Virus record (IMG/VR): IMGVR_UViG_3300031857_000009
DNA length: 16,271 nt
Strand: one strand, 5' to 3'
DNA from: a virus
Taxonomy: Duplodnaviria > Heunggongvirae > Uroviricota > Caudoviricetes
Positions 231 through 15,992 of the stretch are shown piece by piece. Numbering within the stretch: position 1 is the stretch's first letter; every line of letters starts with the position of its first letter. The notes below the pieces were generated by a model, which worked only from the letters and a program-made list of their open reading frames with translations, was not told the origin of the DNA and did no database searches. The translations under genes were made by a program, and so were the position numbers.

Positions 231-268
231 TTGGTGTTATCAAGTTGGCAAAATAGATATAAAAAAAT

Positions 269-299
269 GTTGTTTATATTGAAACTTATATTATATTTG
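269..299 (+). promoter_or_regulatory. Bacteroidota-type promoter
   Basis: GTTG-N19-TATATTTG. Confidence 0.8.
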
Positions 300-328
300 T
301 ATCGTTAAACCAAACAAAAGAAACAATT

Positions 329-535
329 ATGAAAAAGTTATTTCCTTACATCGCAATCATCGGGTTCATTGTTTACTCAATGTGGGTATCATTAACTTGG
401 GATATTCCCGTAGACAATCAAATGGGTATGTTCTTATTTTCTTGTATGGGTATTGGTATGTTCTTTATCATTTTGTTTGAGGACATCAAAAATTACATCA
501 AGAGTAAAAAGAAACCACAACCTCAAAGGTTCTAA
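329..535 (+). CDS. small membrane protein, 68 aa, two hydrophobic segments
   Basis: ORF after promoter and A-rich leader, followed by terminator; two hydrophobic stretches and a basic tail. Confidence 0.85.
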   Translation: MKKLFPYIAIIGFIVYSMWVSLTWDIPVDNQMGMFLFSCMGIGMFFIILFEDIKNYIKSKKKPQPQRF

Positions 536-554
536 AAATTCCAAAATGGTAATT

Positions 555-582
555 AACCCTCAACGAAAGTTGGGGGTTTTTT
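555..582 (+). terminator. intrinsic terminator
   Basis: AACCCTCAAC-GAAA-GTTGGGGGTT plus T tract. Confidence 0.9.
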
Positions 583-620
583 ATTTACACGAGGTTCTGT
601 GGTGGATTTGAGCAGCGTAG

Positions 621-681
621 AAAATTGTTTGGCGGGGTATTACACATTGGTATTATCGTATTACGCTCGCCAACCAAAAAT
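621..681. repeat. TTGGC/GCCAA inverted box pair
   Basis: AAAATTGTTTGGCG ... CGCCAACCAAAAAT; interior has GTATTAC copies. Confidence 0.85.
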
Positions 682-744
682 CAAAATCCGTCTTCTGTCC
701 CTCGACATCTTGTATCGTAAGTTGGCAAAAAAAATATAAATTTA

Positions 745-776
745 TTTGGAATATCCGTTTAATCATATTATATTCG
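745..776 (+). promoter_or_regulatory. Bacteroidota-type promoter
   Basis: TTTG-N20-TATATTCG. Confidence 0.75.
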
Positions 777-805
777 TATTGTTAAACCAAATAAAAAGAA
801 CAAGT

Positions 806-1210
806 ATGAACAATTACAAAGACATTGAAGAAATCAGAGATTTTATTCAAGGAATGACACACTCCGCAAAAGTGAGTACCGAAGAAATGTTGGGAACAAA
901 CGATAGTGTACCCAATGTAAAAATGTACCTTTTGAAAAAAGTAAACGAAGAAGGGGAAACCGAGTATGGTGTTGGTGGTGGACCAGTACCAAACGACCCA
1001 ATCGGTAGAATGGTGTACGACCGAGTTGTTCCACAAATCATTGAAAGGGATGGACACGAAATTTTGTGTAGTGTTGAAACAACCTTTGACAAGGGCGTTT
1101 TGAATGTTGAGTTCCACAATTTTGTAACCGATGAAAAACATCAAGAGGTTTTTGATTTTTATAAACCTTACCAAGTTTCCGACCTTATGAAAAATCTTTG
1201 TTTAAATTGA
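806..1210 (+). CDS. hypothetical protein, 134 aa
   Basis: Start moved from 746 to ATG 806 because the upstream part of the ORF is the promoter; terminator follows. Confidence 0.85.
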   Translation: MNNYKDIEEIRDFIQGMTHSAKVSTEEMLGTNDSVPNVKMYLLKKVNEEGETEYGVGGGPVPNDPIGRMVYDRVVPQIIERDGHEILCSVETTFDKGVLNVEFHNFVTDEKHQEVFDFYKPYQVSDLMKNLCLN

Positions 1211-1232
1211 ATTTAGTTTGTTGGTTCAGACT

Positions 1233-1262
1233 AACCCTCATCAGTAATGGTGGGGGTTTTTT
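1233..1262 (+). terminator. intrinsic terminator
   Basis: AACCCTCATCA-GTAA-TGGTGGGGGTT plus T tract. Confidence 0.9.
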
Positions 1263-1292
1263 ATTTGTTTCCCTTATTGATAAGGTGAACAT

Positions 1293-1318
1293 TTCAGGAC
1301 TTGAGTCAGGGCCCTGAA
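1293..1318. repeat. TGAGTCA spacer element
   Basis: TTCAGG-ACT-TGAGTCA-GGGC-CCTGAA; related copies at 2793, 3158, 11095. Confidence 0.7.
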
Positions 1319-1320
1319 GG

Positions 1321-1383
1321 AAAATTGTTTGGCGCCGTATGACAAATAGTGAGTATCGTATTACACCTACGCCAACCAATTTT
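1321..1383. repeat. TTGGC/GCCAA inverted box pair
   Basis: AAAATTGTTTGGCG ... CGCCAACCAATTTT; interior GTATGACA and GTATTACAC. Confidence 0.9.
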
Positions 1384-1421
1384 TGGATACGGACGACGGT
1401 TCTGAGAAAAATAAAAATAAA

Positions 1422-1453
1422 TTTGGTATATAAGAAAAATAGTTTTATATTTG
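1422..1453 (+). promoter_or_regulatory. Bacteroidota-type promoter
   Basis: TTTG-N20-TATATTTG. Confidence 0.85.
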
Positions 1454-1478
1454 TATAGTTAAACCAATAGACAAAATC

Positions 1479-1694
1479 ATGAAAGTTATCTCATCTCGTA
1501 TTACGGAACAACCAAAGAGTTTGTTCGACCCGATGCCCCAAGTGTGGGTTACAATGGAAAATGGACAAGAAGAATTTTTGTTCGACTACTATCCCGATGA
1601 AATCAGTTTCACTCCCAACGAATTTGTGGGATTGACTATTGAGGAATGTAGACACCTCAAATTTGTCAAAGACAAGAAATACCTGACCTCCTGA
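1479..1694 (+). CDS. conserved hypothetical protein, 71 aa (FDPMP / YYPDEISF motifs)
   Basis: ORF after promoter; motifs resemble a small uncharacterised family (from memory). Confidence 0.85.
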   Translation: MKVISSRITEQPKSLFDPMPQVWVTMENGQEEFLFDYYPDEISFTPNEFVGLTIEECRHLKFVKDKKYLTS

Positions 1695-1728
1695 CGGGAG
1701 ATGTTGGAATTTGATTGGCAAAAAAAGA

Positions 1729-1760
1729 TTTGGAATATAAAAGAAATAGTATTATATTTG
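1729..1760 (+). promoter_or_regulatory. Bacteroidota-type promoter
   Basis: TTTG-N20-TATATTTG. Confidence 0.85.
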
Positions 1761-1789
1761 TATCGTTAAACCAATAAAACAAAAAAGAA

Positions 1790-2164
1790 ATGTCAAGAGG
1801 AATTTTAATCGACGTAGAAAACAAAACAATTTCCGAAGTTGAAGTTGTTCGTGATGAAACTGGTAGTCAGTTACCAAGTATCTATGGACACTTAAAGTGT
1901 TCTATTTTTGAGATTGTTAGTTACAACAACGAAAACGATGTGTATGTTGATGAAGAAGGTATAATGAGTGTTGATGAAAACACAAAGTTTTTCAAGTTGA
2001 AAAATTACCGACAACCTCTATCGGGTAATGGGTTGATAATGGGTTACGATGATGAAACGGGTGAAAATGGTGATACCAAACTTTCACTTGAAGAAGTCAA
2101 AGAACAAGTAACATTTATGTCCGCGTTTGACGTGGCGTTAAAAGAAAGGTTTGGTTCATATTAG
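1790..2164 (+). CDS. DUF3846-like protein, 124 aa
   Basis: CxxFEIV...YVDEEG...PLxGNGLIxGxDxExG pattern resembles DUF3846; the CDS itself is certain, the family is tentative. Confidence 0.7.
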   Translation: MSRGILIDVENKTISEVEVVRDETGSQLPSIYGHLKCSIFEIVSYNNENDVYVDEEGIMSVDENTKFFKLKNYRQPLSGNGLIMGYDDETGENGDTKLSLEEVKEQVTFMSAFDVALKERFGSY

Positions 2165-2183
2165 GTTTGGTTTAGTTAGGTGG

Positions 2184-2215
2184 AAAGTCCTCGGCGAAAG
2201 TCGGGGATTTTTTTT
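2184..2215 (+). terminator. intrinsic terminator
   Basis: AGTCCTCGGC-GAAA-GTCGGGGATT plus T tract; same hairpin at 4977. Confidence 0.9.
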
Positions 2216-2253
2216 GCTCGGATGTGTGCAGTGGAGCTGCACAGTTGCAGCTC
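2216..2253. repeat. GAGCTGCACAG spacer element
   Basis: GCTCGGATGTGTGCAGTGGAGCTGCACAGTT, near-identical to 14099-14130; contains 8-bp stem GAGCTGCA/TGCAGCTC. Confidence 0.7.
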
Positions 2254-2255
2254 GG

Positions 2256-2316
2256 AATTTTGGTTGGCGTTGTATGACACTATCATACATTGTATTACAC
2301 CTACGCCAAACAATTT
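2256..2316. repeat. TTGGC/GCCAA inverted box pair (arm variants swapped)
   Basis: AATTTTGGTTGGCG ... CGCCAAACAATTT; interior GTATGACAC and GTATTACAC. Confidence 0.9.
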
Positions 2317-2390
2317 TTCGGATTTGACGACAGGTGGTCATCTGTTTCGTGGTAGTTTGGCAAAATAGATAAAAAAAAATATACTCAAAT

Positions 2391-2421
2391 GTTGTGTATA
2401 TTAAAATTTGATTTATATTTG
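2391..2421 (+). promoter_or_regulatory. Bacteroidota-type promoter
   Basis: GTTG-N19-TATATTTG; closely similar to the 269-299 promoter region. Confidence 0.8.
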
Positions 2422-2453
2422 TATTGTTAAACCAATAAAACAAAAAAAACAAA

Positions 2454-2756
2454 ATGGAAAAGTACATTGATTTCTCTATCGACTACGATGGTAATTGTGA
2501 ATGTGTTGATGATTTCCTCGTTAATAACGAAGAAGTAACTATTGACGATTCGGATGTTCAACCTCTAATTGAGAAGTTGGAACAACTTGAAGGGTTTTTT
2601 ATTTCCGACCACCGAACCCAAGTCCGTATTTGGTGGAACGAAGATGGAACTATGGATGTCCGTTTTCGTTATTTCAATGAACCCGATTGGGGGGAATTTG
2701 ATGATTACGAACTATTGGGTATCCCACAAATTGAGTTTGAACCCGAAGTTTTTTAA
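2454..2756 (+). CDS. acidic hypothetical protein, 100 aa
   Basis: ORF between promoter and terminator; very Asp/Glu-rich. Confidence 0.85.
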   Translation: MEKYIDFSIDYDGNCECVDDFLVNNEEVTIDDSDVQPLIEKLEQLEGFFISDHRTQVRIWWNEDGTMDVRFRYFNEPDWGEFDDYELLGIPQIEFEPEVF

Positions 2757-2761
2757 CAACG

Positions 2762-2790
2762 AACCCTCACCGAAAGGTGGGGGTTTTTTT
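2762..2790 (+). terminator. intrinsic terminator
   Basis: AACCCTCACC-GAAA-GGTGGGGGTT plus T tract. Confidence 0.9.
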
Positions 2791-2792
2791 AT

Positions 2793-2821
2793 GACCTGAA
2801 GAACTTGAGTCACGGTTCAGG
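2793..2821. repeat. TGAGTCA spacer element
   Basis: GACCTGAA-GAACT-TGAGTCA-CGG-TTCAGG. Confidence 0.75.
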
Positions 2822-2855
2822 GTGAAAATTGGTTGGCAAGAAAGATATAAAAAAA

Positions 2856-2887
2856 TTTGGATTATACGAAAAAATGTTTTATCTTTG
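2856..2887 (+). promoter_or_regulatory. Bacteroidota-type promoter
   Basis: TTTG-N20-TATCTTTG. Confidence 0.85.
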
Positions 2888-2909
2888 TGTTTCACCAAAA
2901 CTAATTAAA

Positions 2910-3122
2910 ATGACAAGACAAGAAGTTGTTGGTTTAATTTACCAACATATTCAAACCGAAAACGAAATGGGTTTACCACCGAATAGAAGTTGGGAAGGAA
3001 TTTTTGAAGGTGATAATGATTGGGTAGATGAATGTATTAAGAGTGGATATACACTATTTCAATTACAGAATGAATTGTTCAACGAAGCGATTCAAATTTT
3101 TCGGGATAGTGAAGAAGAGTAA
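2910..3122 (+). CDS. hypothetical protein, 70 aa
   Basis: Start moved from 2829 to ATG 2910 (downstream of promoter); terminator follows. Confidence 0.85.
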   Translation: MTRQEVVGLIYQHIQTENEMGLPPNRSWEGIFEGDNDWVDECIKSGYTLFQLQNELFNEAIQIFRDSEEE

Positions 3123-3129
3123 AGACAAG

Positions 3130-3155
3130 ACCTCAACGAAAGTTGGGGTTTTTTT
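3130..3155 (+). terminator. intrinsic terminator
   Basis: ACCTCAAC-GAAA-GTTGGGGT plus T tract. Confidence 0.9.
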
Positions 3156-3157
3156 AT

Positions 3158-3185
3158 GACCTGAAGTCCTGAGTCACGGTTCAGG
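3158..3185. repeat. TGAGTCA spacer element
   Basis: GACCTGAA-GTCC-TGAGTCA-CGG-TTCAGG. Confidence 0.75.
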
Positions 3186-3188
3186 GTG

Positions 3189-3263
3189 AAAATTGTTTGG
3201 CATCCACTTTACAGATTAGTAGGTTTTTACTTTACAGATTGTAAGAACGCCAACCAAAATTTT
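3189..3263. repeat. TTGGC/GCCAA inverted box pair
   Basis: AAAATTGTTTGGC ... GCCAACCAAAATTTT; interior has direct repeat ACTTTACAGATT at 3206 and 3229. Confidence 0.85.
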
Positions 3264-3339
3264 CCCGACGCAGCGGTTCTGAGATGTTACCGAATGGTAA
3301 GTTACTATTTGGTTAGTTGGCAAGAAAAATAAAAATAAA

Positions 3340-3371
3340 TTTGGTAGAATAAAAAACTCGTTATATCTTTG
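3340..3371 (+). promoter_or_regulatory. Bacteroidota-type promoter
   Basis: TTTG-N20-TATCTTTG. Confidence 0.85.
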
Positions 3372-3392
3372 TATCATAAAATCGACAAAATA

Positions 3393-3941
3393 ATGAAAAC
3401 ACTTGTAATTCATCCAAAAGACAAATCGACACAATTTTTAGATATTGTGTACGAACCTATACCGAATAAGACAATTATCACGGGTGGGGTAACAAAAGAA
3501 GAAGTTAGAAAACTTATCGACGCCCACGACAGAGTAATAATGTGTGGACACGGAGCACCTATGGGATTGTTCTCGGTTGGACAATTTCCTGGTTCAAATG
3601 GTTTCATCATTGATGAAAGTATGGTGTACCTATTAAAAGAAAAAGACAATTCAATTTTTATTTGGTGTAACGCGGACAAATTCGTTAATCACTTTAAGTT
3701 GAAAGGTTTTTATTCGGGAATGTTTATTTCCGAAGTAGGGGAAGCGTACTATTGTGGTTTACCTGGTACCGAACAAGAAGTAGTTGATGAAAGTAACTAT
3801 GGTTTTTGTGAACTTTTATCGGAGTGTATTAACGAACCACAAGATAGAATGTACGAAATCATTAAAAAGGAATATGGTAAGATTGCGGAAGAAAACCCAG
3901 TCGCACTATACAACCACAACCGCCTGTACTTGTCGATTTAA
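3393..3941 (+). CDS. hypothetical protein, 182 aa; possible His-Cys (clan CD-like) peptidase fold
   Basis: ATG 3393 after promoter; VIMCGHG and IFIWC motifs; function is inference only. Confidence 0.8.
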   Translation: MKTLVIHPKDKSTQFLDIVYEPIPNKTIITGGVTKEEVRKLIDAHDRVIMCGHGAPMGLFSVGQFPGSNGFIIDESMVYLLKEKDNSIFIWCNADKFVNHFKLKGFYSGMFISEVGEAYYCGLPGTEQEVVDESNYGFCELLSECINEPQDRMYEIIKKEYGKIAEENPVALYNHNRLYLSI

Positions 3942-3964
3942 TTGGTTTAACTCGGTTGCGGTGG

Positions 3965-3994
3965 AAAAGGGTAGCAGAAATGTTACCCTTTTTT
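3965..3994 (+). terminator. intrinsic terminator
   Basis: AAAAGGGTAGCA-GAAA-TGTTACCCTTTTTT. Confidence 0.9.
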
Positions 3995-4034
3995 GTTGCG
4001 TTTTAGTTTCACCTCACAGCACGTGCTGTATCCT

Positions 4035-4134
4035 AAATTTGGTTGGCACTGTATGACACTCAATAAAGGCGTATTACACTATATGTTTTGTTTAATCTTT
4101 CGGTCAAAACATTAAACAACACGCCAAACAATTT
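4035..4134. repeat. TTGGC/GCCAA inverted box pair, long form (arm variants swapped)
   Basis: AAATTTGGTTGGC ... GCCAAACAATTT; interior GTATGACAC, GTATTACAC and an AT-rich insert; preceded by perfect palindrome ACAGCACGTGCTGT (4016-4029). Confidence 0.85.
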
Positions 4135-4165
4135 GTGGGATGGAGACGACAGGTATGAAAAAAAA

Positions 4166-4197
4166 TTTGGATTATACTGAATATAGTTTTATATTTG
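4166..4197 (+). promoter_or_regulatory. Bacteroidota-type promoter
   Basis: TTTG-N20-TATATTTG. Confidence 0.85.
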
Positions 4198-4217
4198 TAT
4201 CGTAATACATAATTACT

Positions 4218-4379
4218 ATGAGTAAGAAATCAATCCCAACGGAAATCAAAGTCGGTGTTTACTATTACATTGATGATGAAACTAAACAACCAATCTTTGA
4301 TACCGATGAAATGAGAAATGAGTTTGAACAAAAACTTAAAGAAATAGAAGATGAAACCGAATTTAACTATGAAGAATGA
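4218..4379 (+). CDS. small acidic protein, 53 aa (not in ORF track)
   Basis: Hand translation MSKKSIPTEIKVGVYYYIDDETKQPIFDTDEMRNEFEQKLKEIEDETEFNYEE; directly follows promoter 4166-4197. Confidence 0.8.
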   Translation: MSKKSIPTEIKVGVYYYIDDETKQPIFDTDEMRNEFEQKLKEIEDETEFNYEE

Positions 4380-4509
4380 AACCCTTAATGGATTAAGTGT
4401 GAGACACGTCGCACAAATAGTCCGTAGGAAAATGTTACAGAAGTCGAAACCTTCGGCGAAGGCGTACAGACGAATAAAGTTTGGCAAAAAAGATTTGGTA
4501 AACGAATAA
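4369..4509 (+). CDS. small basic protein, 46 aa (not in ORF track)
   Basis: Hand translation MKNETLNGLSVRHVAQIVRRKMLQKSKPSAKAYRRIKFGKKDLVNE; start overlaps end of previous ORF by 11 nt. Confidence 0.65.
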   Translation: MKNETLNGLSVRHVAQIVRRKMLQKSKPSAKAYRRIKFGKKDLVNE

Positions 4510-4525
4510 AATTGTTATATATTTG
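4494..4525 (+). promoter_or_regulatory. Bacteroidota-type promoter
   Basis: TTTG-N20-TATATTTG. Confidence 0.85.
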
Positions 4526-4550
4526 TATAAACCAATAAATAATAACGACT

Positions 4551-4958: not shown

Positions 4959-4976
4959 ATTTTGTTTGGTTAGGTG

Positions 4977-5010
4977 AAAAGTCCTCGGCGAAAGTCGGGG
5001 ATTTTTTTTT
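4977..5010 (+). terminator. intrinsic terminator
   Basis: AGTCCTCGGC-GAAA-GTCGGGGATT plus T tract. Confidence 0.9.
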
Positions 5011-5044: not shown

Positions 5045-5104
5045 ATTTTGTTTGGCGGATAACCTATTATATTTAAGTGTTTTATGTGGTCAGCCAACCA
5101 AAAT
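5045..5104. repeat. TTGGC/GCCAA inverted box pair
   Basis: ATTTTGTTTGGC ... GCCAACCAAAAT with a unique interior. Confidence 0.85.
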
Positions 5105-5158: not shown

Positions 5159-5189
5159 TTTGGATATCATAAAATGAATTGTATATTTG
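5159..5189 (+). promoter_or_regulatory. Bacteroidota-type promoter
   Basis: TTTG-N19-TATATTTG; near-identical to 5523-5553. Confidence 0.85.
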
Positions 5190-5193
5190 TATT

Positions 5194-5499
5194 ATGAAAA
5201 ACTATAACGACATATCATTGAATACCGATGAGGAAGTAATGAACTACCTAAAAAAATCGGAAAAAGAAGGTAAAGTGTGTGACATCATTGAAACTGAAAA
5301 TTATATTTCGGTTGATGTTGAATGGGCATACAACTTTGAAGGTCACAAAGTGGAGAGGAGAAAATTTATCTATCTTCTTACTCGTTCTAACTTTCAATTT
5401 AACAAAACAATATCGCGTTATGTTAGAGAAAAAGACGAAATAAGATTCAGAAGAATTGAAAAAGAGTTCAAACGAATATTCAGATTGACATCAATTTGA
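5194..5499 (+). CDS. hypothetical protein, 101 aa
   Basis: First ATG downstream of promoter is 5194; start uncertain (could be a later Met). Confidence 0.75.
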   Translation: MKNYNDISLNTDEEVMNYLKKSEKEGKVCDIIETENYISVDVEWAYNFEGHKVERRKFIYLLTRSNFQFNKTISRYVREKDEIRFRRIEKEFKRIFRLTSI

Positions 5500-5522
5500 T
5501 TGGCAAAATATCCTAAAAAAAA

Positions 5523-5553
5523 TTTGGATATCATAAAATAAGTTGTATATTTG
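5523..5553 (+). promoter_or_regulatory. Bacteroidota-type promoter
   Basis: TTTG-N19-TATATTTG. Confidence 0.85.
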
Positions 5554-5820: not shown

Positions 5821-5857
5821 GGAGATGGTGAACCGCCGATTTTGATTGGCACAATCG

Positions 5858-5890
5858 TTTGTATATTCCAAAAATTCATTTGTATATTTG
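5858..5890 (+). promoter_or_regulatory. Bacteroidota-type promoter
   Basis: TTTG-N21-TATATTTG. Confidence 0.8.
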
Positions 5891-6533: not shown

Positions 6534-6573
6534 AATTTAGTTTGGCGGGTGTATGACAGATGCCAACCAATTT
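6534..6573. repeat. TTGGC/GCCAA inverted box pair, short form
   Basis: AATTTAGTTTGGC-GGGTGTATGACAGAT-GCCAACCAATTT. Confidence 0.85.
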
Positions 6574-6623: not shown

Positions 6624-6655
6624 TTTGGATTATAATGAAAAGTGTATTACATTTG
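6624..6655 (+). promoter_or_regulatory. Bacteroidota-type promoter
   Basis: TTTG-N20-TACATTTG. Confidence 0.8.
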
Positions 6656-6677: not shown

Positions 6678-7532
6678 ATGTCACAAGAAAATCGCACACA
6701 GCAAGTTCTCAACAAAGTCGGCCTAAATTGGACCGTAAGAGAAGAAAGTATCACTACAGAAAGTGGTATCATTGTTCCTAAGAGTAAAGCAATCATCCGT
6801 GAGGACACAAACACTGTTTTGTCTGTACATGGTGATGGTTACTTTCCTTATCAAAATCATCAGATGGTTGATTTACTAGACAAGGTATCTCAACAGGTTG
6901 GTTTACCAATTCACAAAGGTGGTTACTTTGGTGGGGGTGAGAAAGTATACCTTCAATTGAAATCAAATGATTTGAAATTGGGCAATGACAGAGTTGAGGG
7001 TTTCATCACTGGTGTGAATTCCTTCGATGGGTCAACTAGTTTGGCATTCGGTCCAAGTAATATTACAATCAGTTGTCAGAATTCATTCTTCGCAGCGTTC
7101 CGTAACTTGAATGCGAAAATTCGTCACACCAAAAACATGGAGATGAGAATCGATGATATCTGTCGTGGTTTGGAGGGGGTACTCGTGGAAGAAAAAGAAA
7201 TGTTCGAAGACATTAAGAAACTTTCTGAAACGAAGATGACCAAGAAACAAGAGGATTGGGTTACACGTACATTGTTCAATATCATGAAAGATGTTGATTT
7301 GAATAGTGACAAAGATGTGTCGACCGTGACTCGTAATCGTCTTTCTCGTTTCTACGTAGACCTTAATGGTGAAGTAAAAGAGAAAGGTGATAACCTTTGG
7401 GGATTGTTCAGTGGGGTTACTAAGTACACCACACATTCCTTAAGTAAAGGTGATAACTCTGAAAACAAGATGTTTGGAACCTATGGACAAAGGGAACGTC
7501 AAATTTTCAAAGAATTGGTTGAGTTGGTTTAA
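6678..7532 (+). CDS. DUF932 / TIGR03299-like phage-plasmid protein, 284 aa
   Basis: GLNWTV, AxxRxDxxxVL, YxPxQN, NSFDGSTS, SCxN, IRHT, NLWGLFSGVTxY motifs typical of DUF932; start moved to 6678. Confidence 0.85.
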   Translation: MSQENRTQQVLNKVGLNWTVREESITTESGIIVPKSKAIIREDTNTVLSVHGDGYFPYQNHQMVDLLDKVSQQVGLPIHKGGYFGGGEKVYLQLKSNDLKLGNDRVEGFITGVNSFDGSTSLAFGPSNITISCQNSFFAAFRNLNAKIRHTKNMEMRIDDICRGLEGVLVEEKEMFEDIKKLSETKMTKKQEDWVTRTLFNIMKDVDLNSDKDVSTVTRNRLSRFYVDLNGEVKEKGDNLWGLFSGVTKYTTHSLSKGDNSENKMFGTYGQRERQIFKELVELV

Positions 7533-7623: not shown

Positions 7624-7686
7624 AAAATTGTTTGGCAAACTCTAAACCCAATAAAATCAATACTTTGGGTTCGAGCCAACCAAAAT
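7624..7686. repeat. TTGGC/GCCAA inverted box pair, family B interior
   Basis: AAAATTGTTTGGC ... AACCCAATAAAATCAA ... TTGGGTT ... GCCAACCAAAAT. Confidence 0.85.
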
Positions 7687-7845: not shown

Positions 7846-7917
7846 AATAATAAGTATCCAAGATGGTGATGATGCAGCACAGGATAACTTTTGTTTGGCA
7901 AGAAATATAAAAATAAA

Positions 7918-7949
7918 TTTGGATTATACAAAATATAGATTTATATTTG
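7918..7949 (+). promoter_or_regulatory. Bacteroidota-type promoter
   Basis: TTTG-N20-TATATTTG. Confidence 0.85.
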
Positions 7950-8191: not shown

Positions 8192-8215
8192 AAATCACCT
8201 TCACGGGTGATTTTT
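8192..8215 (+). terminator. intrinsic terminator
   Basis: AAATCACC-TTCACG-GGTGATTT plus T. Confidence 0.8.
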
Positions 8216-8240
8216 GTTTGGCGAAAAAAATAAAAAAAAA

Positions 8241-8272
8241 ATTCACTTATACAAAAAATAGATTTATATTTG
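8241..8272 (+). promoter_or_regulatory. Bacteroidota-type promoter, degenerate -33
   Basis: TATATTTG at 8265-8272; no TTTG at -33, but a TTGGC box at the canonical 47-bp offset. Confidence 0.7.
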
Positions 8273-8573: not shown

Positions 8574-8978
8574 ATGGCGAACCCACTAATTCACTCAAAG
8601 AGCAGCGTCAAGCGTTGGGGTGGTAAGGTAGAAGATTATTTACCTATCCACGAACTTATTGATAGTCCGAAAGCGACAATGAACAATAATAGTTCTCGGT
8701 TACTCACCCACAACACTTGGTTCGCATACACTATCATTCCAAAAATCTTCGGTTACAACATTACTAATAGTGATGGTAAGTCAGTTGATGTTGTTGATAT
8801 TGCGATGTTACATATCGCAGAAGATTTTAGAATGAAGTTCGTTCCAACCCCACAAGATTACCTTAAACATTTAGAGGTTCAACCCTGGATGTGTAATGGG
8901 GTAAAAGATTTAGACAACCCCGAAGCGTACGAAGTAGTTAAACAATTAAACCAAAAAATCCACGAATATGCAAACTAA
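8574..8978 (+). CDS. DUF6915-like protein, 134 aa
   Basis: ANPLIHxKSSVKRWGGxxEDYLPIH...HR/HN...FG...NSDG...HIxED pattern; ATG 8574 follows previous stop. Confidence 0.8.
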   Translation: MANPLIHSKSSVKRWGGKVEDYLPIHELIDSPKATMNNNSSRLLTHNTWFAYTIIPKIFGYNITNSDGKSVDVVDIAMLHIAEDFRMKFVPTPQDYLKHLEVQPWMCNGVKDLDNPEAYEVVKQLNQKIHEYAN

Positions 8979-10420: not shown

Positions 10421-10482
10421 GATTTTGTTTGGCATTCTGTAAACCCAATAAAATCAATGGTTTGGGTTCGCCAACCAAAATC
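10421..10482. repeat. TTGGC/GCCAA inverted box pair, family B interior
   Basis: GATTTTGTTTGGC ... TGTAAACCCAATAAAATCAA ... GCCAACCAAAATC. Confidence 0.9.
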
Positions 10483-10603
10483 AAGGGCTGGTTGCTGCTG
10501 TTGCACAACTGGTTTTTTCTAGTCATTGCTTCTGGTTTTACTGGTTTCCTGCTGCGGGGACCTGGAATCCACCAAATTGTTTGGCAAAAAAAATAAAAAA
10601 ATT

Positions 10604-10635
10604 ATTGGATTATATTCTATATACTTTTATATTTG
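10604..10635 (+). promoter_or_regulatory. Bacteroidota-type promoter
   Basis: ATTG-N20-TATATTTG. Confidence 0.8.
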
Positions 10636-10656
10636 TGGTGTTAAATTAATAAACAT

Positions 10657-11064
10657 ATGTACACGACAATTAAAGATTATTATTCCTTCTTGAAAAAACA
10701 AAAAGAGGAAAAAGAGAATGAACTTTCTAAGATAAAAGAAAGTGTTAACCAACAAATGGATGTTTTTATGTCCGAACATGGTTGGACACGAAAGGGTAAA
10801 GTTCAAACCAAAAAGTATACTCAAAAAGTAACTTACACCAAAAAGTTCAATGGTAAGGATATCGTAATTGAGTATCGTGGTAACTACCAAGATGATTTTG
10901 TTGATGGTGGTTGCCCCGAGTTCGTACACGATAAATCAATACCTAATTGTGTTGAGAAATTTCAAATGGGTTACTTTCATTGGAACGACCAAGACACAAG
11001 TGGTTGGAGTTTAGATGTGGTAATGGAACGAATGGAAGTGTTCTATAACAAGTACACCTCGTAA
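10657..11064 (+). CDS. hypothetical protein, 135 aa
   Basis: ORF between promoter and terminator; N-terminal coiled-coil-like segment. Confidence 0.85.
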   Translation: MYTTIKDYYSFLKKQKEEKENELSKIKESVNQQMDVFMSEHGWTRKGKVQTKKYTQKVTYTKKFNGKDIVIEYRGNYQDDFVDGGCPEFVHDKSIPNCVEKFQMGYFHWNDQDTSGWSLDVVMERMEVFYNKYTS

Positions 11065-11067
11065 GAG

Positions 11068-11089
11068 AAACCCCGAAAGGGGTTTTTTT
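11068..11089 (+). terminator. intrinsic terminator
   Basis: AAACCCC-GAAA-GGGGTTTTTTT. Confidence 0.9.
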
Positions 11090-11094
11090 ATTTC

Positions 11095-11120
11095 TCAGGA
11101 CTCTGAGTCACGGTTCAGGA
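11095..11120. repeat. TGAGTCA spacer element
   Basis: TCAGGA-CTC-TGAGTCA-CGG-TTCAGGA. Confidence 0.7.
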
Positions 11121-11154
11121 CGGAAATTAGATTGGCAAGAAAAATAAAAAAATA

Positions 11155-11186
11155 TTTGGATTATATTAATTACTGATTTATATTTG
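11155..11186 (+). promoter_or_regulatory. Bacteroidota-type promoter
   Basis: TTTG-N20-TATATTTG. Confidence 0.85.
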
Positions 11187-11425: not shown

Positions 11426-11429
11426 TCAT

Positions 11430-11633: not shown

Positions 11634-11634
11634 C

Positions 11635-11955
11635 ATGAAAAATTTCAGTCAAGTTTGTGTTTGGCCCGCAACTCTTATCGGTAAGTCCAACATTAAGGAA
11701 TTCGAAAAGTGGTTAAAACAAGAATTCGGTGTTCGTGCAAAATATTGTGAGGAAGTAGAAACACTACCTACACCAGGCGAACCTGAAACGGGTGGAAGAA
11801 ACGATGTGTTCTTTAGAGTCCATCAAGATGACATTCCAAAATTCGCAGTACCCCGTTTACAAATTGGTATTCGTTGGTGGGAGGATGTATTACTTAATGG
11901 TAATGGTGTTCTCTATCCCCAAGATATTTTGGAAAGATACCCGAAGACATGGTGA
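11635..11955 (+). CDS. conserved hypothetical protein, 106 aa (TGGRND / GIRWWED motifs)
   Basis: ATG 2 nt after the previous stop. Confidence 0.85.
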   Translation: MKNFSQVCVWPATLIGKSNIKEFEKWLKQEFGVRAKYCEEVETLPTPGEPETGGRNDVFFRVHQDDIPKFAVPRLQIGIRWWEDVLLNGNGVLYPQDILERYPKTW

Positions 11956-11982
11956 ACAGTGAATATTGATTGGCAAAAATAA

Positions 11983-12013
11983 CTTGTAAAAAGAAATAAT
12001 CTTTATACCTTTG
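11983..12013 (+). promoter_or_regulatory. Bacteroidota-type promoter
   Basis: CTTG-N19-TACCTTTG. Confidence 0.75.
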
Positions 12014-12028
12014 TAAAAAACCATTCGT

Positions 12029-12280
12029 ATGACAAATCAAGAAATAACTACCCATTGGGTAAATCAAAGTGAGAAAGTCCTAAAGGGACGAGTTATCAAA
12101 TCAGTTCGTTATCTTACCGATGAGGAAATGGAACTTATGGGTTGGTACAAGAGACCAATTTGTATTGAGTTGGACAACGGAACACTATGTATTCCTTCTA
12201 TGGATGATGAGGGAAATGATGGTGGAAGTTTGTTCTACCAAGAAAAAGGTAAAGAACTTGATGTATTACCTGTAATCTAA
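12029..12280 (+). CDS. conserved hypothetical protein, 83 aa (DDEGNDGG motif)
   Basis: ORF after promoter; motif recalled from an uncharacterised phage family. Confidence 0.85.
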   Translation: MTNQEITTHWVNQSEKVLKGRVIKSVRYLTDEEMELMGWYKRPICIELDNGTLCIPSMDDEGNDGGSLFYQEKGKELDVLPVI

Positions 12281-12365
12281 AAACACTTGACAATGTAAAA
12301 TATGATGTGTAACTTTTTATTGGATTACATTTCATAGTTGTAATTTGTGTTTGGTTTGACACACT

Positions 12366-12393
12366 AAAGGGGTTCTTCGGAATCCCTTTTTTT
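12366..12393 (+). terminator. intrinsic terminator
   Basis: AAAGGGGTTC-TTCG-GAATCCCTTTTTTT (cUUCGg loop). Confidence 0.9.
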
Positions 12394-12582
12394 GTTTCTA
12401 AAATACTGAAAATCTTCGTTTTAACATACGCCAGGGGGAAAACTGGACGACGGCTGGACGATTTTGTTTGGCAAGAAATACTAGTATTCTTGGTGAATAT
12501 CCTTAAAAGTTTTAGTATGTTTGTCATACACAAAGTCAAAGATGTATGTGGAAAAACTTTTTTGAAAAAACTTTAAAAAAAA

Positions 12583-12614
12583 TTTGGAAAAAAAGAAAAA
12601 CTATTATATCTTTG
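12583..12614 (+). promoter_or_regulatory. Bacteroidota-type promoter
   Basis: TTTG-N20-TATCTTTG. Confidence 0.85.
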
Positions 12615-12653
12615 TACCCACATTAAATCTTTAATCTAAAATTAGAAACGAAA

Positions 12654-13409
12654 ATGAGTACAAAAAATGTTCAAGTAAAGTTCACCCAAAATTTGGGTAT
12701 GTTCAAACTTCACAATGTAAATCGTGAGGTAGACTCTCCACGCGTTAAGCGTATTACAGACTCGATGAAGAAGGACGGATTAAAACTCGTTCCAATCATT
12801 GTAAACTCCCAGTATGTGGTTGTAGACGGACAACACCGACTAACCGCAGCAAAAGAAGCGGGTAAAGGTATCTACTTTATTGTAGACAACTCAATCCCCA
12901 ACACCACGAAAGGTATCTTTGAAGCCGCACGTAAGTTCAACCAGAACATGAAAGAGTGGGGTAAGAAAGATTACATTCATGGTTTTTCCGAACAAGGAAA
13001 CAAATCTTACAAAACTTTGGAAGATTTTTCAAAAGAGTTTCCGATGTTTTCTTTGACCGAAAGAATTATGTTACTACAAAATTCTGGTACTCGTCATTGT
13101 GACAAACAAGATTTTGCGGATGGTAAGTTTGTTGTTGGTAATATGGAAACCGCCAAAGAATGGGCGAATAACCTACTCCAACTGAAACCTTACTTTGAAA
13201 AGGGTTACAACAAATCGGTATTTGTTCGTACTATTCTTACCATTATGGAAAAGAAACCCGATTTTAAGTTTGAAGAATTTTTACATAAAGTAAAACTTCG
13301 TCCAAGTTCAATCTATATGTGTGGTGATAAAAAATCATACGCGGAAATGATTGAAGACATTTACAACTACAAGCGTCGTAATGAGGACAAGTTGAACCTT
13401 CGTTTCTAA
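12654..13409 (+). CDS. ParB/Srx N-terminal-like (DGQHR) domain protein, 251 aa
   Basis: NRxV...V..I..SM...G...PIIVN....VVDGQHRL.A motif is the ParB/Srx-fold signature. Confidence 0.85.
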   Translation: MSTKNVQVKFTQNLGMFKLHNVNREVDSPRVKRITDSMKKDGLKLVPIIVNSQYVVVDGQHRLTAAKEAGKGIYFIVDNSIPNTTKGIFEAARKFNQNMKEWGKKDYIHGFSEQGNKSYKTLEDFSKEFPMFSLTERIMLLQNSGTRHCDKQDFADGKFVVGNMETAKEWANNLLQLKPYFEKGYNKSVFVRTILTIMEKKPDFKFEEFLHKVKLRPSSIYMCGDKKSYAEMIEDIYNYKRRNEDKLNLRF

Positions 13410-13431
13410 CTTTGGATTAGGGTTAGTGATT

Positions 13432-13461
13432 GGGGTGACCGAAAGGTTACCCCTTTTTTTT
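13432..13461 (+). terminator. intrinsic terminator
   Basis: GGGGTGACC-GAAA-GGTTACCCT plus T tract. Confidence 0.9.
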
Positions 13462-13609
13462 GCTCAAAATTTCACAAGATGTAACATCCTGAAGACGACT
13501 CCAGATTTTGTTTGGCGGAGTTTTCAACACACAAATGTTTGTAATCCAATAAAAAAGACACTTTTTGTATAAGGTTTTGACAAAAAAGTTGAACAAAGTG
13601 AAAATATTT

Positions 13610-13641
13610 GTTGTTTATCGAAAATATTCTTATTACTTTTG
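13610..13641 (+). promoter_or_regulatory. Bacteroidota-type promoter
   Basis: GTTG-N20-TACTTTTG. Confidence 0.7.
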
Positions 13642-13664
13642 TACTGTAATTCAAAAACTTGAAT

Positions 13665-14036
13665 ATGATAAAAAAACCAAGAAAGACTACGGCTAATTCT
13701 CTGAAGAAGTCTTTGCACGAAATTCGTGAATGCCTTAATGAGAGTTTACCAAACTTTGAGAAAAAGGAAATGGTGGGAATTAAATTTTCTCGTGTTGGTA
13801 CTCGTTATCACATTGAAAATGCACCAGTTCCTCCTACCGATAAGATTGGTGTACAGCTTGAGCGTTCTTTCAATGATTTTATGCGTAAGCTGAAAGTAAC
13901 TTATGGTGGAATGAAACTTGAAGGTTCGATGGTGTTAGGGACCAAAGACGATTTGTTTTTGGTTGGCTACAACAACTATGAACGTAAAGGTAAAAACCTC
14001 ACCAAAAAGGGACATTCAATAGAAGGGGTTCTTTAG
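13665..14036 (+). CDS. basic hypothetical protein, 123 aa
   Basis: ATG 13665 after promoter; Lys-rich; terminator follows. Confidence 0.8.
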   Translation: MIKKPRKTTANSLKKSLHEIRECLNESLPNFEKKEMVGIKFSRVGTRYHIENAPVPPTDKIGVQLERSFNDFMRKLKVTYGGMKLEGSMVLGTKDDLFLVGYNNYERKGKNLTKKGHSIEGVL

Positions 14037-14066
14037 TTTAGTATATTGATTTAATGTTCGGTTCGA

Positions 14067-14096
14067 AAAACCCTCACAGAAATGTGGGGGTTTTTT
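14067..14096 (+). terminator. intrinsic terminator
   Basis: AAAACCCTCACA-GAAA-TGTGGGGGTTTTTT; same hairpin as 6467. Confidence 0.9.
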
Positions 14097-14140
14097 ATTG
14101 CTCGAATGTGTGCGGAGGAGCTGCACAGTTCGTCTATTAA

Positions 14141-14166
14141 ATTAGTTTGGCGCCCGCCAAACAATA
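14141..14166. repeat. TTGGC/GCCAA inverted box pair with no interior
   Basis: ATTAGTTTGGCG-CC-CGCCAAACAATA. Confidence 0.8.
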
Positions 14167-14215
14167 TCGCCCTGGGAAGAACAGGTCCCTCCTGAAGAAA
14201 AAAAATAAAAATAAA

Positions 14216-14247
14216 TTTGGAATATAAAAGAATTCGTTTTATATTTG
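14216..14247 (+). promoter_or_regulatory. Bacteroidota-type promoter
   Basis: TTTG-N20-TATATTTG. Confidence 0.85.
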
Positions 14248-14267
14248 TATTGTTAAACCAATATTAT

Positions 14268-15038
14268 ATGGAGTACAGAAATAAAACCCAAGCCAGAAAG
14301 GAAACTGGAATCAATTATTTAGGTTCAGTTAACCTGACATCAAAACACGCTAAGGCGTACAAGTATGATGAATTAACCTACAGTCTTTACCTCGCACCCG
14401 CGGACTTAAGTGGTTACGAAGTTTGCCCAATGAGAAACGCGGAGTGTACTGCACTATGTTTAAACGAATCTGGTATGAATCGAATGAACATGAGAGATGA
14501 CATGATTACTGAGAGTAGAATTAAAAAAACAAAATTGTTTTTCGAACATCGCCAGTATTTCATGCAATGGATGGTTGCAGAAATTGAGGCGGCAAAAAAG
14601 AAGGCAGAAAAACAAGGTTATCACTTTAGTGTTCGTTTAAATAACACTTCAGACATTTCACCCGAATCTTTTCATATGGAGATAGATGGTAAAAGAAAAA
14701 ACATTTTGCAATTGTTTCCTAATGTTATGTTTTACGACTACAGCAAAGTGGGTAAACGAATGGAGTTAGTTAAGAAGTATAAGAACTACGACTTAACATT
14801 TTCATTTAGTGGTACAAACTTTTCAGATTGTATTAGTATGTTGAACAATGGTATACGAGTTGCCGTTGTTTTCAAAAAAGAAATACCCAAAAAGTTTTGG
14901 GGTAGAAAAGTTATCGATGGTGACTTATATGATATGAGATATCGAGATGAGAACGACATTATTGTGGGATTAAAATATAAAGTCACACGAAAACGACCTC
15001 AAAAAGATAGTAAGTTTATAGTAGACCCCTCACAATGA
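14268..15038 (+). CDS. GP88-family protein, 256 aa
   Basis: SLYLAPA..SG..VCP.....C...CL..SG, VRLNxTSD, FYDY.K, NYDLTFS, DGDxxDxRxxD, VGLxYK motifs recalled for the phage gene product 88 family; start moved to 14268. Confidence 0.8.
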   Translation: MEYRNKTQARKETGINYLGSVNLTSKHAKAYKYDELTYSLYLAPADLSGYEVCPMRNAECTALCLNESGMNRMNMRDDMITESRIKKTKLFFEHRQYFMQWMVAEIEAAKKKAEKQGYHFSVRLNNTSDISPESFHMEIDGKRKNILQLFPNVMFYDYSKVGKRMELVKKYKNYDLTFSFSGTNFSDCISMLNNGIRVAVVFKKEIPKKFWGRKVIDGDLYDMRYRDENDIIVGLKYKVTRKRPQKDSKFIVDPSQ

Positions 15039-15048
15039 GGGGTTTTTT
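15025..15048 (+). terminator. intrinsic terminator overlapping stop codon
   Basis: ACCCCTCA-CAA-TGAGGGGT plus T tract. Confidence 0.85.
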
Positions 15049-15087
15049 ATTGCTTGAAGATGTTGCGCGCATGATGCTGGTCATCGG

Positions 15088-15149
15088 AATTTTGTTTGGC
15101 ATTCTGTAATCCTAATAAAATCAACACTTTAAGTTGTGCCAACCAAAAT
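15088..15149. repeat. TTGGC/GCCAA inverted box pair, family B interior
   Basis: AATTTTGTTTGGC-ATTCTGTAATCCTAATAAAATCAA ... GCCAACCAAAAT. Confidence 0.9.
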
Positions 15150-15261
15150 CACCTGGCTTCAGACTGGTTGCAACAGCCAGTTTTACTGGTCATTTTGCTG
15201 GTGACCCTGGTTAATCCAAAAACTTGGTTGGCAAGAAAACAATAAAAAAGATAAAAAATTA

Positions 15262-15293
15262 TTTGGAATATAATAATAACAGTATTATATTTG
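15262..15293 (+). promoter_or_regulatory. Bacteroidota-type promoter
   Basis: TTTG-N20-TATATTTG. Confidence 0.85.
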
Positions 15294-15313
15294 TATCATA
15301 AAACAACATAACA

Positions 15314-15916
15314 ATGGGACAATATTATAAACCAATCATTTTAGGTAACACCCCAAAAGAGGGTGAACACGAAACAGTTAAAGCGTGGATGTATTCACAC
15401 GAGTACGACAACGGACTCAAACTGATGGAGCATTCCTATCAAGGGAACAACTTCGTTTCAACTTTTGAAAAACAATTAACCCGTAGAGGTGAACATTACA
15501 AAAGTCGTGTAGTGTGGGCGGGTGATTACGCAGGAGAAGAACCAGGTGTAAAAGTCATTTCGGAAGGGAAGGAGTACGATGCAAATTTGTATTCACTTTG
15601 TAATGATGAAAACCAAATCAAACCCAAAGTGTCATCAACGGATGAATACCCCTACATTGTAAACCACACCAAAAAAATGTTCGTGGATAAAAACAAAGTT
15701 CCCGAAATTCAAGGATGGGATGGTGTAAAAATTCACCCTTTACCACTATTAACTAGTGAAGGTAACGGAATGGGTGGGGGAGATTTTAGAGGTGATGATG
15801 AAAATGAGATTGTTGGTTCGTGGGCAAGAGATGTTATCTCGGTAGAAAAAGATAGTCCACTCGTAACCAATGGGATGATGAATTACACCGAATTGATTTT
15901 TGATTTGAAAGAATAA
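15314..15916 (+). CDS. conserved phage hypothetical protein, 200 aa (MGQYY / GLKLMEHSY motifs)
   Basis: ORF between promoter and terminator; motifs recalled from an uncharacterised family. Confidence 0.85.
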   Translation: MGQYYKPIILGNTPKEGEHETVKAWMYSHEYDNGLKLMEHSYQGNNFVSTFEKQLTRRGEHYKSRVVWAGDYAGEEPGVKVISEGKEYDANLYSLCNDENQIKPKVSSTDEYPYIVNHTKKMFVDKNKVPEIQGWDGVKIHPLPLLTSEGNGMGGGDFRGDDENEIVGSWARDVISVEKDSPLVTNGMMNYTELIFDLKE

Positions 15917-15920
15917 AAAG

Positions 15921-15944
15921 GTCCCCCGTCACAGGGGGATTTTT
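15921..15944 (+). terminator. intrinsic terminator
   Basis: TCCCCC-GTCACA-GGGGGA plus T tract. Confidence 0.8.
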
Positions 15945-15960
15945 GTTTGGCAAAAAAACA

Positions 15961-15992
15961 TTTGGAATATAAAAGAATTAGTATTATATTTG
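15961..15992 (+). promoter_or_regulatory. Bacteroidota-type promoter
   Basis: TTTG-N20-TATATTTG; near-identical to 1729-1760. Confidence 0.85.

Follow-up and report, generated by a model that had tools for sequence, protein, structure and literature searches.

The window analysed here, a stretch of 16,271 nucleotides (IMG/VR virus record IMGVR_UViG_3300031857_000009, Caudoviricetes), represents bases 1485-17755 of one 114,927-bp contig with a G+C content of 33.5%. Many early promoters of this phage are preceded by a short box with the core TTGGC, which is found at three distances from the promoter, about one helical turn apart. With moderate confidence, this box can be regarded as the recognition site of a sequence-specific, most likely phage-encoded protein that would be held in phase with RNA polymerase and would tune the early regulon. 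The observations comprise the motif, its copy number and distribution, its quantised spacing, the switching of orthologous genes between spacing classes, modular insertions and deletions in the spacer and lineage-specific variants of the box.

About 50 small genes are found on the + strand in the first ~25 kb of the genome. Most have their own promoter and many an intrinsic terminator. The early promoters, approximately 30 in number, are of the host Bacteroidota primary-sigma type (-33 TTTG, -7 TAnnTTTG) and the box is present at about two thirds of them. The offset used throughout is the distance that separates the first T of TTGGC from the initial T of the -7 octamer TAnnTT(T/C)G. The box promoters of the window are:

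238-299, + strand: box (TTGGC 245-249), two A-tract modules and promoter; -7 at 292; offset 47; no -33 TTTG
715-776, + strand: box (722) and promoter; -7 at 769 (TATATTCG); offset 47
1708-1760, + strand: box (1715), one A-tract module and promoter; -7 at 1753; offset 38
2350-2421, + strand: box (2357), three modules and promoter; -7 at 2414; offset 57; no -33 TTTG
2826-2887, + strand: box (2833) and promoter; -7 at 2880; offset 47; L006 ortholog 57
3310-3371, + strand: box (3317) and promoter; -7 at 3364; offset 47
4474-4525, + strand: box (4481) and promoter; -7 at 4518; offset 37
5493-5553, + strand: box (5500) and promoter; -7 at 5546; offset 46; -33/-7 spacing 23, box-to-(-33) distance still 23
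5839-5890, + strand: box (5846) and promoter; -7 at 5883; offset 37
7888-7949, + strand: box (7895) and promoter; -7 at 7942; offset 47
8211-8272, + strand: box (8218, TTGGCG) and promoter; -7 at 8265; offset 47; no -33 TTTG; orthologs at 57/58 through a 10-bp block insertion
10574-10635, + strand: box (10581) and promoter; -7 at 10628; offset 47
11125-11186, + strand: box (11132) and promoter; -7 at 11179; offset 47; L005/L006 orthologs 57
11963-12013, + strand: box (11970) and promoter; -7 at 12006; offset 36
15221-15293, + strand: box (15228), three A-tract modules and promoter; -7 at 15286; offset 58
15940-15992, + strand: box (15947, overlapping a terminator T-run) and promoter; -7 at 15985; offset 38
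12461-12523, + strand: box (12468) and TATGTTTG (12516), 48 bp apart; doubtful promoter; pair kept at 49 bp in L003

A preliminary description of the window had reported 16 of these offsets and had assigned them to three classes about 10 bp apart, with variable A-tracts filling the space between box and promoter. All 16 were exact on recomputation, the gap between box and promoter is A-tract-rich as claimed, and offsets of 39-45 and 49-55 hold no match in the window. In the offset histogram the ~37, ~47 and ~57 classes contain 5, 10 and 2 matches, against 0.09, 0.04 and 0.05 expected from dinucleotide-preserving shuffles of the window. The pair 12468/12516, absent from that description, is not counted as a promoter because it has neither a -33 element nor an open reading frame (ORF) behind it. 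Four more promoters at 47 bp lie outside the window (window-equivalent positions 16947, 17704, 18092 and 20765). Class-fitting pairs are all located on the + strand (genome 700-22300); genome-wide, no comparable box promoters are found on the - strand or beyond ~25 kb. Individual promoters are not independent since they belong to related cassettes. In the tightly packed junctions at 8203-8222 and 15925-15951 the box and the terminator of the upstream gene overlap, the T-run of the latter being the T-rich 5' half of the former (ATTTTTGTTT).

The same spacing rule is observed in related phages. A search with the GP88-like protein yielded 22 viral contigs, among which L001-L007 (78-98% identity in this protein) carry the same box. 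Their promoters with an ORF behind them show offsets solely of 36-38, 46-48 and 57-58 bp; apparent exceptions (25, 30, 40, 49, 63 and 64) correspond to coding-sequence matches, to the -33 region itself or to the doubtful 12516 site. After dereplication at 85% identity, 42 promoter clusters from five related metagenomic phage lineages are distributed 10/22/10 in the three classes with none between, and a period scan of these clusters peaks at 10.4-10.5 bp (Rayleigh R 0.958). The periodicity of about 10 bp thus extends beyond the window, and the quantisation of the spacing at one helical turn holds for related phages as well. The conserved quantity is the distance from the box to the -33 element (12-14, 23-24 or 34-35 bp, in steps of ~10.4): a -33/-7 spacing of 23 bp goes with an offset of 46 or 57, and one of 24 bp with 47 or 58. 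Orthologous genes switch class between phages by whole turns (genes are named by their -7 position):

gene 2880: offsets 47, 57
gene 5546: offsets 46, 47, 57
gene 8265: offsets 47, 57, 58
gene 11179: offsets 47, 57
gene 15286: offsets 58, 47, 57
gene 15985: offsets 38, 37, 47
gene 16947: offsets 47, 37

Where cassettes of different class can be aligned, they differ by one uninterrupted block of 10-11 bp located directly after the box:

L006 2566 versus L006 2068: 11 bp
window 8265 versus L001 3999: 10 bp
L006 5641 versus L006 6218: 11 bp
L004 9927 versus window 16947: 10 bp

Since class changes are single 10-11 bp block insertions or deletions, the spacer is a short array in which the A-tract module is repeated in tandem, with one to three copies. 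A is most frequent around -28.5, -39 and -50.5, counted from the start of the -7 element, which gives UP-like subsites of ~10 bp. This array is a promoter element in its own right, UP-like in nature, because it is kept at the promoters that have no box:

1422-1453, + strand: boxless promoter, -7 at 1446; two-module A-tract array upstream, as at box promoters
4166-4197, + strand: boxless promoter, -7 at 4190; one A-tract module
5159-5189, + strand: boxless promoter, -7 at 5182
6624-6655, + strand: boxless promoter of the DUF932 gene, -7 at 6648; L004 ortholog with a box at 58
12583-12614, + strand: boxless promoter of the ParB/DGQHR-like gene, -7 at 12607; L005/L006 orthologs with a box at 58
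14216-14247, + strand: boxless promoter of the GP88-like gene, -7 at 14240

Cassette similarity breaks at the box, and replacement of cassettes between orthologs is seen. Contigs of relatives from runs of RNA libraries join window positions 10580/11132, 6632/8217, 8224/14215 and 8224/15258. In these joined contigs, genes flanked by two boxes or A-tract arrays are missing or exchanged for others, which shows cassette-mediated gene loss and replacement. The boxes coincide with the recombination joints between cassettes.

Alignment of all TTGGC copies of the first 26 kb identifies TTGGC as the core of a 13-bp asymmetric motif, rAAwTTwGnTTGGCr. A softened weight matrix picks out 72 copies in the first 26 kb, where random sequence of equal composition would give 5.4; 55 of the 72 are co-oriented with transcription. 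The remaining 89 kb contain 19 copies by the same matrix, which is near chance. The site is restricted to intergenic DNA within the first 25 kb; matches inside coding sequence do not exceed chance (~5 chance matches are expected in 26 kb at this threshold) and no stoperator-like role is claimed for them. Roughly 50 copies lie away from promoters, and some of these are arranged in convergent pairs between terminators and promoters, with 11 examples in the window (distances are centre-to-centre):

622-680: convergent pair (629 on the + strand, 673 on the - strand), 40 bp
1322-1382: convergent pair (1329/1375), 42 bp
2257-2316: convergent pair (2264/2309), 41 bp
3190-3260: convergent pair (3197/3253), 52 bp
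4036-4134: convergent pair (4043/4127), 80 bp
5045-5104: convergent pair (5052/5097), 41 bp
6535-6573: convergent pair (6542/6566), 20 bp
7625-7686: convergent pair (7632/7679), 43 bp
10422-10481: convergent pair (10429/10474), 41 bp
14140-14167: minimal palindrome TTGGC-N4-GCCAA (14147/14160), 9 bp
15089-15149: convergent pair (15096/15142), 42 bp

In this phage and its relatives the spacings of the pairs are 9, 19-20, 30-32, 40-43, 50-52 and 80-82 bp, with exceptions at 14, 15, 28, 77, 86 and 87 bp; the best period is 10.5-11 bp (R ~0.65). Because box copies are in mutual helical register, they fit proteins on double-stranded DNA better than an RNA hairpin. A hand count detected no register between the right arm of the pairs and the -7 element.

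The interiors of several pairs (634-668, 1334-1370, 2269-2304 and 4048-4122) share GTATTAC or GTATGAC(A) words, related to a near-palindrome GTAnTAC. Words of the GTATTAC type also occur inside the pairs of lineages with other boxes (L009, L022 and L024) and may represent a second recognition element. Three tandem 72-bp units at 30-245, just upstream of the first box promoter, each contain a reverse-oriented box (GCCAATCTAATTTCC at 45, 117 and 189); together with boxes at genome 1408 and 1484 they bring the count to 7 in 800 bp, a box density reached nowhere else in the genome. Several boxes (2786-2832, 3151-3196 and 11095-11131) are preceded by a repeated GC-richer unit CCTGAAG…GAGTCACGGTTCAGG with the inverted repeat CCTGAA/TTCAGG, which is also present in relatives and includes GANTC sites. 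Near-palindromes are located behind the box at 12468-12560 and at window-equivalent 20718-20770 (AAGAAATACTAGTATTCTT, and AATATTCTAGAA, which is repeated), and GTATGTTTGTCATAC is found upstream of the ParB/DGQHR-like gene. All three may be extra operators.

The architecture is maintained in more distant relatives, where convergent pairs with GTATTAC/GTCATAC-like interiors lie upstream and a copy in promoter orientation stands close to the promoter, but their box differs:

L008-L014: TTACTGGGG
L022: TTTACTGGA
L019: TTTACCGGGA
L024 and L025: TTAGTCTGGA
L027: TTGTTGGGCAA
L015, L017 and L018: short TTGGC-N4-GCCAA palindromes

A T-rich 5' half and a YGG core are common to all lineage boxes. In L008-L014 the box stands farther out; of 28 offsets, 24 have values of 66-67, 76, 84-86 or 95-97 bp (the outliers are at 73 and 83), a weaker and partly independent echo of the periodicity. 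In L015, L017, L018 and L027, two direct TTAACA repeats with an 11-bp spacing (…CTTTAACAAAATCTTAACAAAATAAATTTGG) stand where A-tract modules would otherwise be. The site drifts with the lineage while the layout is kept, which favours a co-evolving phage protein over a conserved host factor. Of the two origins envisaged in the preliminary description, a phage-encoded or a hijacked factor, the former is accordingly preferred and the hijacked host protein is the less likely one. Its wider proposal of a protein site serving a whole early regulon agrees with a 13-bp motif present in ~70 copies in the early region and with the lineage variants, and the box does resemble such a site.

The core elements of the promoters are near consensus. 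The -7 octamer is an exact TAnnTTTG in 15 of the 16 promoters first described, promoter 769 having TATATTCG, and the -33 TTTG generally starts 24 bp (range 23-25) before the octamer; it is absent at promoters 292, 2414, 8265, 10628 and 12006. Near-consensus cores are unusual for activator-dependent promoters, and the weak core associated with Class I-type (CRP-like) activation is not observed here. With such cores, the activator role suggested for the bound protein in the preliminary description is not established. Promoter 8265 does lack the -33 TTTG and does keep its box at 47 bp, which had been read as activator compensation. This reading did not survive a wider count, as the box is present at 11 of 19 unique promoters without the -33 TTTG and at 65 of 95 with it (Fisher p=0.43). 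A sigma-54 reading of TTGGCA was rejected, no -12 GC element being present at the right distance in the sequence. A common leader, TAT(C/T)GTTAAACCAA(T/A)A, directly follows the -7 element and is predicted to open many transcripts (300-320, 777-797, 1454-1474, 1761-1781, 2422-2442 and 14248-14268). It has no Shine-Dalgarno sequence, as is usual in Bacteroidota.

In the scheme that we propose, a single box in promoter orientation stands immediately before an UP-like array, which abuts the -33 element. The array comprises one, two or three A-tract modules, each 10-11 bp and thus one helical turn in length. The rotational register remains constant whatever the distance (box 12-14, 23-24 or 34-35 bp from -33, and 36-38, 46-48 or 57-58 bp from -7), and the bound protein would occupy a fixed face relative to RNA polymerase, probably beside the C-terminal domain of the polymerase alpha subunit (alpha-CTD) on the A-tracts. 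Phased convergent pairs would let bound proteins interact with each other. Protein binding, phage origin, polymerase contact and the sign of regulation are what we infer. As to the sign, we lean, by a narrow preference, towards feedback control or shut-off of the early regulon rather than simple activation, because cores are near consensus, because boxless promoters look equally good and because strong promoters must fire before phage proteins exist. Shut-off might operate through polymerase held at strong promoters, as with phi29 p4, or through a basic protein tail in the A-tract minor groove; activation might still apply to the few promoters without a -33 element.

The leading candidate for the binder of the box is an 89-aa protein encoded by the last gene of the + strand block, beyond the window (genome 24249-24518; L023:6550-6819). 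In this protein, which has no Pfam match, a Lys/Pro/Ala-rich tail precedes the conserved domain (…IYYDGFSYRVR…G…S.NFSSKKKA..FR…). Its 120 homologous clusters are all unnamed. In the AlphaFold model (11-sequence alignment), residues 44-87 form a beta-sheet and a C-terminal helix with a pLDDT of 81-92, the three-stranded sheet (strands within residues 44-72) packing on helix 75-87. The best structural matches of this model are AP2 domains (7et4, 6sy0) and integrase arm-type domains (3jtz, 3rmp, lambda Int); the top ones, weak as they are, have Z scores of 5.1-5.2 and rmsd values of 1.9-2.2 over 46-48 residues. A profile search of the sequences of solved structures with the 89-aa protein returned chance matches only. 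Its language-model neighbours, which include Integrase_DNA and Arm-DNA-bind_4 clusters (atlas scores 0.83-0.87), are leads only. Small arm-type and AP2 domains act as monomers on asymmetric ~10-bp sites, which are arrayed directly or in inverted order, and would therefore fit a box that is used singly, directly repeated or inverted.

The gene occupies the same position, at the end of the early block, in every lineage examined. Three to five co-oriented boxes of the phage's own lineage bracket it in all 9 genomes compared, whatever the box sequence, and in 6 of the 9 no other direct box array is denser. In the TTGGC clade five boxes in total surround the gene, split 1+4, 2+3, 3+2 or 4+1 between upstream and downstream. 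Here (L023:6462-7100, genome 24161-24800) one box lies upstream and four direct boxes lie downstream (genome 24619-24779), spaced by 57, 47 and 56 bp. The promoter of the gene has a box 34-37 bp from its -33 element and a -7 element ending in T or A, not G. Box arrays together with a box at its own promoter form the pattern that would be expected of an autoregulated regulator. Between this box and the -33 element, four lineages share a conserved GTTCTTTGAAA. No classical transcription factor was revealed when ~30 early proteins were scanned against Pfam and PHROG. A second candidate binder is the ParB/DGQHR-like gene (window 12654-13409, + strand), which occurs in TTGGC and TCTGGA lineages and was not found near the GP88 gene in L009 or L022.

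Several observations weigh against a phase-held phage protein or against this candidate. Boxless promoters have the same A-tract array and look equally strong. The promoters are recombining homologous cassettes and their counts are not independent; for the same reason the nominal Rayleigh probabilities (~1e-17) overstate significance. The gain or loss of whole 10-11 bp tandem units would by itself produce quantised lengths. The box of L022 is 2-4 bp out of register with the classes of this phage, and the association of the box with a missing -33 element is not significant (11/76 with a box versus 8/38 without). As for the 89-aa protein, its AP2 and arm-type matches are weak (Z 4.0-5.2, Foldseek E 0.4-1.7) and find no counterpart in Pfam. 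Residues 48-49 (HH, DN, NN, SN or RN) were considered as a specificity code, HH seeming to go with TTGGC and DN with ACTGG; this was rejected, since L024 (NN) and L025 (HH) share TCTGGA and L027 (SN) has TTGGGC. The preliminary description had stated that the protein must sit on the same helix face as RNA polymerase. The helical register is indeed kept, but the obligation is not established, because boxless promoters share whole A-tract modules and the phase lock could follow from a modular UP-like or curved element. A fixed protein face and growth of the spacer by whole modules are compatible readings that computation does not separate.

It is unlikely, in our opinion, that the phased A-tract array alone is functional, as an UP element or as curved DNA recruiting alpha-CTD, with TTGGC as the edge of a mobile cassette, a recombination joint, and the distance given by the copy number (1-3) of a 10-11 bp unit. 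The array at boxless promoters, the single-unit insertions and deletions behind class changes and A-tract centres at about -8.5, -28.5, -39 and -50.5 all agree with it, and known UP elements have A-tract-preferring proximal, distal and far-distal subsites (PMC3326320). The break of cassette similarity at the box agrees with it as well, as do the contigs of relatives that join at boxes and A-tracts (e.g. 10580 to 11132). However, several things are left unexplained by a recombination edge: the 13-bp motif and its invariant core, the ~50 non-promoter copies, the helical phasing of the convergent pairs, the direct arrays that in every lineage flank one small gene, and the lineage-specific swap of the box under a constant architecture. 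Simple inheritance of three ancestral cassette types, spread by recombination with no selection on spacing, seems very improbable. All cassettes do cluster at 75% identity and each genome has one favoured type (57 in L005/L006, 47 here). Nevertheless, A-runs are prone to slippage and the offsets stay within 1 bp of three values at 57-78% identity of the neighbouring proteins; a 1-bp change in -33/-7 spacing is mirrored in the offset while the box-to-(-33) distance is constant, and independent single-block insertions and deletions are all of 10-11 bp.

A host transcription factor or nucleoid protein to which the phage early regulon is wired would be another possible ligand of the box, and we consider it quite unlikely. 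Early promoters must fire before phage proteins are made, so that an activator would have to be host-encoded or injected, and the direct TTAACA repeats of L015, L017, L018 and L027, with their 11-bp spacing, occupy the same place. Against this, the box differs between close phage lineages from similar freshwater samples under a constant architecture, and box arrays consistently bracket one phage gene. It is hardly credible that the box region provides the -33 element for another promoter, in tandem and farther upstream, in which the TTTG of the box 5' half would lie 24 bp before a TAAATTTG overlapping the main -33. TTGGC does stand 19 bp before TAAATTTG at 3336, 7914, 17676 and 18064 (window coordinates), with a flanking TTTG at 24 bp, but only 4 of ~21 box promoters are arranged in this way; the 37 and 57 classes do not fit, nor do most members of the 47 class.

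Several features of the phase-held box have known counterparts. At E. coli promoters, Class I CRP sites are reported by Gaston et al. (1990) and by Ushida and Aiba (1990) to act at -61.5, -71.5 and -82.5 in a helical-phase-dependent manner. Here too, as judged from the sequence, an upstream site lies at distances differing by whole turns, and alpha-CTD would likewise be lodged between the factor and the -35/-33 element. In contrast to CRP, the site is asymmetric, 13 bp long and in single copy, its nearest class, ~13 bp from -33, is closer than CRP tolerates, and the promoters have near-consensus cores and a Bacteroidota-type polymerase. The p4 protein of phi29 is said, after the work of Monsalve, Rojo and Salas in 1996-1997, to contact alpha-CTD, to activate weak and repress strong promoters and to switch off early transcription. 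Like the protein proposed here, it is a phage product upstream of host-sigma promoters on bent A-tract-rich DNA; however, p4 is a dimer on inverted repeats at few promoters, with no regulon-wide box and no spacing classes.

UP elements and phased A-tracts (Ross, Estrem, Aiyar and Gourse) consist of ~10-bp subsites, proximal, distal and far-distal, directly upstream of -35 (PMC3326320). The A-tracts of this phage likewise lie immediately upstream of -33 in ~10-bp subsites, but there may be one, two or three of them, and a conserved box that contains GC caps the array. Stoperators of cluster A mycobacteriophages are 13-bp asymmetric sites in dozens of mostly co-oriented copies, bound by a monomeric phage protein and variable between lineages (PMC9283540, PMC6550527). 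The present site is similar in length and asymmetry and in its copies (72, 55 of them co-oriented with transcription). Stoperators are nevertheless genome-wide in temperate phages and stop elongation, whereas the box is restricted to the early block and phased upstream of promoters, and no helix-turn-helix repressor was found in the Pfam and PHROG scans. Promoter early stem-loop (PeSL) cassettes of T4-type phages are repeated terminator/promoter units that flank small accessory early genes and act as recombination joints (PMC2839356, PMC4122927). Repeated promoter/terminator cassettes around small early ORFs serve as joints here also, although the phage group is unrelated, the promoters are of the Bacteroidota and not the sigma-70 type, and PeSLs are not described with an extra phase-locked box. 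The small beta-sheet and helix of arm-type and AP2 domains (3jtz, 3rmp, 7et4, 6sy0) recall the model of the 89-aa protein, which differs from arm-type integrases in that it stands alone without a recombinase domain, the similarity being weak (Z 4-5.2).

A literature search found nothing specific on Bacteroidota phage early promoters with such a box. There are precedents for helical-phase dependence of upstream sites, for UP elements and phased A-tracts, for asymmetric operators in many copies and for mobile promoter cassettes. What is new is their combination: a regulon-wide 13-bp box that caps variable UP-like modules at Bacteroidota-type promoters in three helical classes, together with lineage-specific variants and an unannotated AP2/arm-like candidate.

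The phage itself is an uncultured freshwater phage of Bacteroidota-type bacteria. The public runs that hold this sequence are freshwater or lake metagenomes. A near-identity search of a phage collection found no near match and a search with the DUF932 protein gave distant actinophage matches only. The early genes that can be named are DUF932, DUF6915, GP88-like, ParB/DGQHR-like, DUF4314, SprT-like, DUF4241 and bacterial PH domain genes, and the block is a typical phage early/accessory block. Part of this set (window 6678-7532, 8574-8978, 12654-13409 and 14268-15038, and L023:207-683, including DUF932, DUF6915, ParB/DGQHR-like, GP88-like and SprT-like genes) recalls the leading regions of conjugative plasmids and anti-defence loci. 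Metatranscriptome contigs from four runs, which may include DNA, cover gene bodies of relatives.

The timing of gene expression in Bacteroidota phages is almost unexplored. A tentative and rather doubtful extension of these results is that a family of small proteins, with a basic tail and an AP2/arm-like domain, governs the early regulon of widespread freshwater Bacteroidota phages through a lineage-specific phased 13-bp box. Their tail would perhaps lie in the A-tract minor groove, competing or cooperating with alpha-CTD, and the same boxes would be joints for cassette shuffling, which would couple regulation and gene exchange. The early region offers a testable grammar composed of a host-type core, a modular UP-like spacer of whole turns, a capping box in ~70 copies and a regulator for which a candidate is named. 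The variants that occur naturally at 13, 23 and 34 bp, like the lineages with other boxes, provide ready controls for phase dependence and for the co-evolution of protein-DNA specificity. If confirmed, these parts would be useful for tunable promoters in Bacteroidota.

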